Source of the DNA: Octopus vulgaris | Lineage: Eukaryota | NCBI GenBank assembly: GCA_951406725.2 | Contig: OX597830.1 | Coordinates: forward strand, 15,128,001 to 15,192,000 | Direction: 5' to 3' | DNA length: 64,000 nt | Shown: positions 31,128 through 60,925 of the stretch, one piece after another | Position numbering within the stretch: the stretch's first letter is position 1 | Layout: each line of letters opens with the position of its first letter | The notes under the pieces: generated by a model | Seen by the model: the letters and a program-made list of their open reading frames with translations, nothing else | Database searches by the model: none | Told to the model about the DNA's origin: nothing | Translations under genes and position numbers: made by a program

Positions 31128-31204
<77 letters not shown>

Positions 31205-31414
31205 AATAATAAATCTCTGAACGAGATATAAACAGTAACCGCTCGACAACGTAAGGGGTATTAGCCATCTGAATGTGGCTAGCCACTGGGGGGGGGGTTA
31301 CTGATGCTTTTAGCCCCAGGCGATCAACGTCACCAGAAGGACTTTAGACACTATCTCAGTGCCCTTGTGTTATTTGCAAAGGGAGGTCATCCTCTCTCGA
31401 AGACCCGAGTACTA

Positions 31415-31459
31415 CATACGGACTATAGTTTCAAGGTAATTGCCTCTCGTCAACGCATG
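31415..31459 (-). ncRNA. Minimal type I hammerhead, unit 1 (U3·G8 core)
   Basis: CAUGCG-UUGACGA-GAGG-caauua-CCUU-GAAAC-UAUA-GUC-CGUAUG. Confidence 0.8.
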
Positions 31460-31762
31460 GTAAGCACCGGTCTTCGATGAAGGAGTCCCCTTGCAAATAA
31501 TATATAATGTTTTTCACAGTAACCACTGTCACTGATGTAGAAAAACTGTCTGAAAACAATAATAAATCTCTGAACGAGATATAAACAGTAACCGCTCGAC
31601 AACGTAAGGGGTATTAGCCATCTGAATGTGGCTAGCCACTGGGGGGGGTTACTGATGCTTTTAGCCCAGGCGATCAACGTCACCAGAAGGACTTTAGACA
31701 CTATCTCAGTGCCCTTGTGTTATTTGCAAAGGGAGGTCATCCTCTCGAAGACCCGAGTACTA

Positions 31763-31807
31763 CATACGGACTATAGTTTCAAGGTAATTGCCTCTCGTCA
31801 ACGCATG
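31763..31807 (-). ncRNA. Minimal type I hammerhead, unit 2
   Basis: Identical to unit 1. Confidence 0.8.
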
Positions 31808-32138
31808 GTAAGCACCGGTCTTCGATGAAGGAGTCCCCTTGCAAATAATATATAATGTTTTTCACAGTAACCACTGTCACTGATGTAGAAAAACTGTCTG
31901 AAAACAATAATAAATCTCTGAACGAGATATAAACAGTAACCGCTCGACAACGTAAGGGGTATTAGCCATCTGAATGTGGCTAGCCATCTGAATGTGGCTA
32001 GCCACTGGGGGGGGGGGGGTGTTACTGATGCTTTTAGCCCCAGGCGATCAACGTCACCAGAAGGACTTTAGACACTATCTCAGTGCCCTTGTGTTATTTG
32101 CAAAAGGAGGTCACCCTCCCTCGAAGACCCGAGTACTA

Positions 32139-32181
32139 CATACGGACTATAGTTTCAAGGTAATTGCCTCTCGTCAACGCA
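32139..32181 (-). ncRNA. Minimal type I hammerhead, unit 3 (stem I clipped by the inversion junction)
   Basis: Identical core. Only UGCG of the 5' stem I strand remains. Confidence 0.7.
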
Positions 32182-32449
32182 CCCCCCCCCCAGTGGCTAG
32201 CCACATTCAGATGGCTAATACCCCTTACGTTGTAATACCCCTATAGTCCGTATGTAGCACTCGGGACTTCGAGGGAGGATGACCTCCCTTTGCAAATAAC
32301 ACAAGGGCACTGAGATAGTGTCTAAAGTCCTTCTGGTGACGTTGATCGCCTGGGGCTAAAAGCATCAGTAACACCCCCCCCCCCAGTGGCTAGTCACATT
32401 CAGATGTCTAATACCCCTTACGTTATATATATATATATATGTATATATA

Positions 32450-32800
32450 TAACGGGAAGGTTTACGAAAATAAACAAAAGACGAAGGCAGGTGGAGTACA
32501 AACAAACAAATATATTAGTATGACGCTCAGGAATAGAAATAGAACAAGTCTTTTACGTTTCGAGCCTACGCTCTTCGACAGAAAGATACACAGAAAAGAA
32601 ACAAGGAGAGAAACAAGGAGAGAAAGAAATGTGTGTAGGAGCTAACGGTCTATCATGGCGTTCTGACTTCAGGCAGAAGTCAGAGGTCAGAGGTCAGAGG
32701 TCAGAGGTCAGAGGTTAGAGGTCAGAGGTCAGACGTTAGACGCTAGAGGGATAGTAGGGGAGATAACAGGGTCAAGTGACTTCCAAAACGAAGCTGGCCC
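32450..32800 (-). mobile_element. Penelope-type pLTR fragment between (TA)n tracts, containing (GTCAGAG)n
   Basis: HHR-like motif followed by a T-rich tail running into (TA)n. Heptamer repeat at ~32679-32745. Confidence 0.55.
32549..32586 (-). ncRNA. Ultra-minimal hammerhead-like motif (A6>U variant)
   Basis: UCUUU-CUGUCGA-A-GAGC-guag-GCUC-GAAAC-GUA-AAAGA. Stems I and II are perfect and stem III is the ACGU palindrome. Confidence 0.6.
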
Positions 32801-45545: not shown

Positions 45546-45720
45546 TTATATACTCAACAAATGCAGCAGTTACTCTATGAAGGAATTCTTAATTTGCATA
45601 CATTAAGTGTTTAACACTATAAATACCAGTGGCCTCTCAACGGGGATCTTAGTCCACATAGTATCAAGGTATGATATAATATATATGTGTGTATATATAT
45701 GTGTGGGGGGTGCAGTACGG

Positions 45721-45776
45721 AATTCTGTCAGTGAACAGGTCGCGGTCTCAAAGCAACGAAAATATTTTGACAAATT
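45721..45776 (+). ncRNA. Minimal hammerhead-like motif with swapped G3-C8 core
   Basis: AAUUcUGUCA-GUGAACA-G-GUCGC-ggucucaaa-GCAAC-GAAA-AUAU-UU-UGACAAAUU. Stem III is the AAUAUU palindrome. Confidence 0.6.
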
Positions 45777-45907
45777 AAATTTAAATGTTGAAGTGAATCT
45801 AACGGTTTTTGTGTATTTCTTAAATGGCTTACAAACACCTTCCACGCTGCAATTGTTTATATATATACAGCTCATAAGCTGAAACTGGAAAAATCAAAAA
45901 TCAAAAT

Positions 45908-45950
<43 letters not shown>

Positions 45951-60207: not shown

Positions 60208-60786
60208 CTAAAACAATCAAGCATAAAAATATAATTTTTTGCGATTTCAAATTAATTTTTTTTATTTCGCTTGTGTATAAAAATCATGTACTTATTAAAA
60301 ATATTTTAAAATAAAAAAAATTCACTCATTAAAAGGACTATTATTTACTATTTTTTAATTTGTATATAATATTATTTTATAATATAAATTGTTTAAAAAT
60401 ATATTTATTTGTCACAGACATGCTGCTATTAATCCTTAGTAGCTTTTATGTGCAAGCAAATTTCTAAGTTTGAATAAAACCTGTATTTAAACAATATTTT
60501 CAATAGTATCATTTTTTCAATTGTAAATATAATAATTATAATAATAGAAGCATTGCATAAAGTCGTCTAGAATGAAAAATGCGGGCGCAGAATCCTGGAA
60601 AATTCTGGCAAAGTACAGAACAAGCAGTAATTAAGCCTGGAAAATATTGCTGCTGAAGTTAAAGTTTGCTAAATAAATTTATGAAACTGTTCATGAAATA
60701 GCGTGTGCACTGTTTTGTTCCGCATATTTTTTGGCTTTTGATTGCAATTTTTTAAAAAAAGTTTTAATTAATATTACTTAAAGTAT

Positions 60787-60925
60787 ACTAGCCATCTCAA
60801 TATGGCTAACCACTAAAGGTGGGTGTTACTGTAGCTTTTTAGCCCCACGAGATCATCATATCCAGTTGGCTTTAGGCACACTTTCTGTGCCCTTGGAGAT
60901 CATCTCGTTCAGAGATTTATTATTG
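60787..60925. mobile_element. Diverged relative of the 31-kb retrozyme-like unit, with an inverted terminal piece
   Basis: TAGCCATCTCAATATGGCTAACCACT...TTTTAGCCCCA...GTGCCCTTG aligns to 31262-31368. ATCTCGTTCAGAGATTTATTATTG is the reverse complement of 31204-31227. Confidence 0.7.

Follow-up and report, generated by a model that had tools for sequence, protein, structure and literature searches.

A hammerhead-like motif with a swapped core pair

The window (the whole 64-kb stretch of DNA analysed here) is AT-rich, holds many microsatellites and dispersed repeats, and has the look of cephalopod DNA. One of these repeats, a unit of about 147 nt flanked by TA-rich sequence, contains a motif that resembles the minimal hammerhead ribozymes of Penelope-like elements (PLEs). 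The features are listed below, with hammerhead numbering for the motif.

45672-45710, no strand: 5' TA/TG microsatellite, lying outside the unit as context of the insertion
45711-45857, +: repeat unit body, about 147 nt; taken to be a PLE pseudo-LTR in solo form
45724-45730, +: 5' arm of stem I in the majority form (7 bp; 5 bp here, 45726-45730), for which pair probabilities were computed
45726-45730 (UGUCA) with 45768-45772 (UGACA), +: stem I of this copy, 5 bp
45731-45737, +: core GUGAACA (G3 U4 G5 A6 A7 C8 A9), with the 3-8 pair swapped
45738, +: extra nucleotide G between A9 and 10.1, a PLE hallmark according to PMC4209133
45739-45757, +: stem II, GUCGC (45739-45743) with GCAAC (45753-45757), 9-nt loop
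45758-45761, +: GAAA (G12 A13 A14 A15.1)
45758-45766, +: G12 A13 A14 A15.1 and the self-complementary AAUAUU (45761-45766), which would give stem III between two copies
45767-45768, +: U17 and predicted cleavage bond (cut after 45767; triplet UUU)
45768-45774, +: 3' arm of stem I; 45770 A>G is common in DNA copies
45775-45857, +: 3' segment; many copies run past 45858 into a shared extension of at least 30 nt
45858-45867, +: (TA)5 end, taken as the microsatellite target

Read directly from the sequence, positions 45726-45772 (+) contain all the features of a minimal type I PLE hammerhead except that G3-C8 stands in place of C3-G8. The first-pass annotation had described this motif, and every element that it named was found where it had been placed, as was the tail of about 90 nt with a TA end: the first TATATATA begins at 45858, 90 nt beyond the predicted cut. 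Watson-Crick pairing of positions 3 and 8 is possible, and U4, G5, A6, A9, G12, A13, A14, the A15.1-U16.1 pair and H17 are all present, together with the palindromic stem III region (AAUAUU, 45761-45766) and the stem II closing pair G10.1-C11.1 (G45739-C45757). Stem II of this copy has one mismatch (C45741-A45755). The literal core C3-U-G-A-N-G8-A is not matched, because position 3 is G and position 8 is C, and Rfam searches of 12-kb and 251-nt stretches gave no hammerhead match. When both strands were scanned with a strict descriptor that allowed any Watson-Crick 3-8 pair, this was the single match in the window. The 64-kb window contained no second copy of the motif-bearing unit, and the locus is a monomer.

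As a control for chance matches, we scanned 1,500 dinucleotide-shuffled (locally shuffled) windows with a descriptor that was drawn up after the motif had been seen; it required a stem I of at least 5 bp, at least four of five stem II pairs, a 3-8 pair of any Watson-Crick kind, and any palindrome. This gave 15 matches, two of which had a G-C core. Matches with a palindrome of at least 6 nt occurred in none of the 1,500 windows, and stems as good as those of the family (7 bp and 5/5) in one. The folding energy of the stretch was ordinary (z of +0.44, -0.94 and -0.55) and gave no support for the motif.

Abundance and majority form of the repeat

Copies were sought in 24 listed runs and mapped in four of them, onto 45560-45900, at 82% likeness and a 4% share. 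The mapped runs were DNA from organisms A, C and D and RNA from organism D; organisms B and E were left out, and an insect-metagenome run (share 0.10) was excluded from use. The stretch was detected in 20 of the 24 runs, which came from 12 studies with five organism labels and one metagenome (small share). Matching contigs numbered 11,554 of 35.8 million in organism A DNA, 14,731 of 40.6 million in organism C DNA and 4,223 of 25.3 million in organism D DNA, and 1,407 of 12.9 million reads matched in organism D RNA; these totals take in some records from flanking repeats. Such counts, with thousands of contigs per run, bear out the earlier view of this sequence as a multi-copy repeat. Inside 45716-45859, summed depth peaked at 4.3, 4.9 and 0.84 million, and individual listed contigs had depths of 10-67. 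We ruled out summed depth as a copy number, because overlapping contigs add together; the copy number can therefore be placed only in the thousands to tens of thousands.

The majority letters of the family give better stems than this copy does. At position 45755, G makes up 92.0, 91.6 and 97.4% of DNA depth and is the letter in 564 of 672 RNA reads. The majority form therefore has a perfect 5-bp stem II, and the mismatch seen here reflects a G-to-A substitution in a CpG. Position 45725 (C>T) is U in 99% of depth, which makes the majority stem I a plain 7 bp and the bulge private to this copy. The bulged AAUU/AAUU extension of stem I and the single stem II mismatch that had been annotated are thus real in this copy, but the family lacks the first and carries the second only as a minority letter. 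By contrast, the core swap is a property of the family. No place with G>C or G>T at 4% or more was found in the three DNA runs; G3 is therefore the family state, and a C3 or U3 form makes up less than 4%. The consensus accordingly keeps both the stem I and stem II pairing and the GUGANCA core of the original description.

Variation elsewhere was limited in kind. The sole C>G place in run X7 is 45636, and among the rows displayed for runs X1 and X5 one of three C>G places is visible. Each of the three DNA runs has four A>G places, all outside the core and 45758-45766. Variant rows displayed were 40 of 109, and G>A and C>T rows are among the others, so minor decay of core G and C letters is possible. 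Two variants are common within the motif: one at 45749 in loop II (23% in organisms A and C), the other an A>G change at 45770 that accounts for 26-29% of DNA depth and turns a stem I U-A pair into U-G. Both are compatible with the structure, but a score of two out of two lacks significance (about 0.16 by a rough count). Stem variation among the displayed rows consisted of one U-A to U-G change, one loop change and CpG-type decay, and no compensatory double change was found among the 40 displayed of 109 variant rows.

Predicted folding also differed between this copy and the majority form. Stem II of the hammerhead is absent from the fold predicted for this copy (pair probability at most 0.03). 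With the majority letters, stems I and II become the predicted fold (-14.5 versus -9.3 kcal/mol), with pair probabilities of 0.61-1.0 for the stems overall and 0.99-1.0 for stem II. In the same model a G3-U17 wobble would lengthen stem I with a probability of 0.67-0.82, and we predict that this pairing is a more specific handicap than the UUU triplet. A double-hammerhead dimer was 2.0 kcal/mol higher than two monomers for the majority form and 6.8 kcal/mol higher for this copy, using an energy model that leaves out tertiary contacts.

Unit borders, ends and junctions

Across 45716-45859, summed contig depth climbs from 0-400 to 0.5-4.9 million. Upstream, the loose ends of DNA contigs follow the window back to about 45711, after which agreement drops (0.48-0.52 over 30 letters), and we read this position as a preferred 5' edge. 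Two types of 3' end were observed. TA loose ends lie behind 45867 in 93, 87 and 39 contigs, and a shared extension starts at 45858 in 119, 109 and 67 contigs and in 351 RNA reads, with an agreement of 0.9; this extension is at least 30 nt long, loose ends being displayed to 30 letters. Both flanks are pieces of other repeats. On the 5' side (45560-45672) the depth is about 100-fold below that of the unit; the 3' side (45868-45911) is deeply covered in organisms A and C but has no depth in organism D.

Eight of the 15 displayed joints switch strand, from 45726-45736 to 45769-45780 (the stem I arms), in one to three contigs each. The same junction would result if the sequence folded back at stem I or if an inverted partner began near the cut. 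Run X1 also shows two joints of high depth. One leads from 45779 to 45726, with 6 letters in between and a depth of 3,227; the other leads from 45844 to 45728, with 11 letters in between and a depth of 1,588. If they are same-strand (the sense is not displayed), they may represent tandem periods of 60 and 128 nt that are largely hammerhead. At this locus itself, neither a tandem nor an inverted partner was seen.

No reverse transcriptase (RT) or GIY-YIG frame was recognised by eye among the 109 stop-to-stop frames of at least 90 aa in the 64-kb window, and no longer copy of the unit turned up when contigs from viruses, metagenomes and genomes were scanned. A 19-letter match (21/22 letters) in a GC-rich phage contig was rejected as chance, its flanks being unlike. 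PLE membership therefore rests on layout. It is in this respect that the pseudo-LTR reading of the first-pass annotation stands, through the (TA)n end, the optional extension, the 5' edge, the strand-switch junctions and the cut-to-end distance. Within the 3' segment, an ATG at 45824-45857 (+) opens MAYKHLPRCNC, which runs to the TA end. In this frame neither of the variants at 45832 and 45838 alters the peptide, and the ATG would be a weak candidate for the start codon of the element.

Other hammerhead-like repeats in the window

Two further repeats on the reverse strand resemble hammerheads.

32453-32581, -: TA-ended repeat carrying a hammerhead-like motif whose core, CUGUCGA (A6U), is at 32581
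31201-32424, -: head-to-tail hammerhead-like repeats of 353 bp, cores at 31453 and 31801, 98.6% and 90.7% alike

The A6U motif has an extra A, a 4-bp stem II, GAAA, the palindrome ACGU, A17 and a 5-bp stem I. Its repeat is single in the window and runs for 102 nt from the predicted cut to TA. We considered it as a homologue of the 45711-45857 unit and rejected this, since the alignment was unconvincing outside the motif. The 353-bp units have the core UUGACGA (a U3-G8 wobble), an 8-nt palindrome and a GUC triplet; the array includes inverted pieces and TA ends and reads as a retrozyme or PLE tandem layout. An older partial relative of this repeat lies at 60786-60925. None of the three hammerhead-like repeats in the window has the standard core.

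RNA reads

In the one RNA run mapped (organism D), reads were split evenly between strands, and 78% of them continue into unlike sequence. RNA ends did not pile up anywhere in this run, including at the predicted cut (45767/45768). A rise of about 17% in RNA depth near the cut was rejected as a cleavage signal, because 54 clipped reads from a variant copy fall at the same place. The RNA pattern fits passive transcription of dispersed copies and holds no sign of cleavage. We also observed that the RNA run (X23) had more transition places than the DNA run with the same organism label (X7, a different individual): 15 versus 4 for A>G, 27 versus 5 for T>C, 20 versus 7 for C>T and 11 versus 6 for G>A, with A>G at 45801 reaching 19% in X23 and 2% in X7. 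The excess of A>G and T>C may be due to A-to-I editing of transcripts from both strands, or simply to older expressed copies.

Comparison with known hammerheads and elements

We compared the motif with the published alignment of PLE motifs (Cervera and de la Pena, Fig. S3; PMC4209133), in which we counted 56 rows. Of these, 53 have C3-G8, two have U3-A8, one has U3-G8 and none has G3-C8. The extra nucleotide is H in the consensus of that paper and G in 1/56 rows. U17 occurs in 24/56 motifs, and one of them, an oyster PLE row, has UUU, so the earlier concern about UUU as a weak triplet was overstated. This table thus contains precedents for every other feature, leaving the 3-8 pair as the sole departure without one there. 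Like the minimal hammerheads of the same paper, the motif is of type I with no loop-loop elements seen, has an extra nucleotide and G10.1-C11.1, and is flanked by U-rich and AU-rich sequence in mostly solo copies in large numbers; its 6-nt palindromic stem III is as in the Drosophila virilis row. The likeness is one of sequence, and the motif is unlike them in its G3-C8 pair.

The layout is similar to that of PAc, a Poseidon element of the anole (PMC11167929), in which the cut is at +26, the RT start is at +111-118 and two internal RT starts enclose the tail. The distance from cut to end is 90 nt here and, by subtraction, 85-92 nt for PAc, as a single comparison; the TA-ended A6U repeat of the window, with 102 nt, comes close to it as well. 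Both also have an AT-rich target and no RNA-seq ends at the cut, and the optional extension seen here may correspond to the optional tail of PAc. According to the same paper, the PAc hammerhead cuts in vitro despite uncut templates and absent RNA ends, hammerhead cleavage is dispensable for insertion in vitro, and an engineered C3G/G8C change partly rescues PLE hammerhead cleavage, for which protein is required. Partial restoration of cleavage by C3G/G8C is likewise given in PMC8495972. PAc differs in that its natural pair is C3-G8 and its hammerhead overlaps the start of a known ORF, whereas in the present repeat most natural copies carry the swap and no RT or GIY-YIG frame was recognised by eye in the window. 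PLEs more widely are described as preferring (TA)n, as occurring in partial tandems and in inverted orientation, and as carrying an optional tail of 30-40 bp, and the role of their hammerheads is called unclear (PMC8557442).

Non-LTR retrozymes (PMC7229834; bioRxiv 10.64898/2026.07.22.740005) are likewise short, non-coding, hammerhead-bearing, high-copy and PLE-related. In those papers they form tandem arrays, their hammerheads are mostly canonical and they have circular RNAs; the locus here, by contrast, is monomeric and its motif minimal, and tandem forms are no more than hinted at. Natural U3-A8 variants (PMC3088659) also show a compensatory 3-8 change, which is of the transition type there and consists of two transversions here. 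An inactive C3-G17 state has been described (PMC3884650), of which a G3-U17 pair would be the mirror. The G3-C8 variant in that paper fares worse with C17, so that U17 may be the milder choice for a G3-C8 core. Literature searches for G3-C8 hammerheads and for cephalopod PLE hammerheads turned up only engineered G3-C8 mutants and natural U3-A8; subscription papers were mostly outside the coverage of both.

Origin and predicted activity

On balance, we favour the reading that this locus is a decayed copy of an abundant repeat of about 147 nt, likely a solo pseudo-LTR of a PLE, and that its G3-C8 hammerhead is weak and dependent on dimer formation or protein, as predicted from the features above. 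By analogy with known PLEs, the RT/GIY-YIG protein of the element would nick (TA)n DNA and start copying inside the RNA. As in the anole PLE, copying could start about 90 nt past the hammerhead or further along, giving the extension, and would run off at the RNA 5' end near 45711 to leave a 147-nt solo unit with the whole motif. Because solo units keep the whole motif, the template would have been uncut. Cutting would need the AAUAUU palindromes of two copies as stem III, for example in tandem or inverted arrays. The swapped pair would keep the Watson-Crick geometry of the 3-8 pair, and for this reason we propose partial activity. Cleavage after U45767 is therefore predicted to be weak at best, with paired copies or the protein of the element. 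This copy is probably inactive, since its stem II is disrupted and it lacks a neighbouring partner.

Consistent with a PLE origin and a functional motif, an optional 3' extension occurs beside TA-ended copies, comparable to the PLE 'tail' (PMC8557442, PMC11167929), and all core letters other than 3 and 8 are standard. Several observations argue against this reading. If positions 3 and 8 varied freely, a Watson-Crick pair would be expected one time in four, and we found no compensatory double change, no pile-up of RNA ends, an unfavourable dimer and a G3-U17 wobble.

The main rival explanation, which we judge rather unlikely, accepts the same PLE origin but holds that the motif no longer cuts, being a dead relic or a protein-binding fold in which G3-C8 is incidental. 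That copies retain 56 nt upstream of the cut site is consistent with this, as are the absence of RNA ends at the site, the G3-U17 trap and the unfavourable dimer. Insertion in vitro does not need cleavage (PMC11167929), and Naiad PLEs spread without hammerheads (PMC8557442). The presence in the same window of two TA-ended repeats with A6U and U3-G8 cores also fits relaxed catalysis. However, the majority form preserves both stems, the palindrome, G10.1-C11.1 and every core letter outside the 3-8 pair, and U17 sidesteps a G3-C17 pair, which would trap the core (compare PMC3884650). The anole hammerhead, too, is reported to have uncut templates and to lack RNA ends at the site, and it does cut in vitro (PMC11167929).

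It is improbable, in our view, that the repeat is a very small non-LTR retrozyme, in which head-to-tail units would be cut, circularised and copied and the locus would be a dispersed monomer. The X1 joints would give 60- and 128-nt tandem periods if same-strand, the window contains a 353-bp tandem hammerhead-like array, and retrozymes have been described as PLE derivatives (PMC7229834; bioRxiv 10.64898/2026.07.22.740005). But the strand sense of these joints is not displayed and the joints themselves were displayed for one run only, and no back-joint was found among the joints displayed for the RNA run (15 repeat joints excluded). Moreover, dispersed copies begin about 56 nt before the cut and not at it, and the motif is minimal, whereas retrozymes have the canonical loop-loop type.

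Finally, a chance look-alike in an unrelated short repeat family is highly improbable: although the descriptor was post hoc, covariation and an Rfam match were lacking, folding z values were unremarkable and a genome has many repeat families, a 6-nt palindrome was found in 0/1,500 shuffled windows and family-grade stems in one, the 7-bp stem I and perfect stem II, which the first-pass annotation had not used, emerged from independent data, and the position of the motif relative to the TA end agrees with the PLE layout.

Implications

A stronger version of the favoured PLE reading is that a natural self-cleaving G3-C8 hammerhead has been fixed in at least three related species, possibly in 60-nt hammerhead-only arrays, and is kept by selection. 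We regard this version as possible but doubtful. Each single step from C3-G8 to G3-C8 abolishes cleavage. With both single intermediates dead, a family fixed for the double change amounts to a natural test of selection on the core. Descriptors based on CUGANGA, and Rfam, overlook whole high-copy families of this kind. If an active and selected G3-C8 family does exist, a double transversion hitherto made only in the laboratory would occur naturally in thousands of copies, and catalysis by Penelope hammerheads would matter in vivo even though it is dispensable for insertion in vitro.
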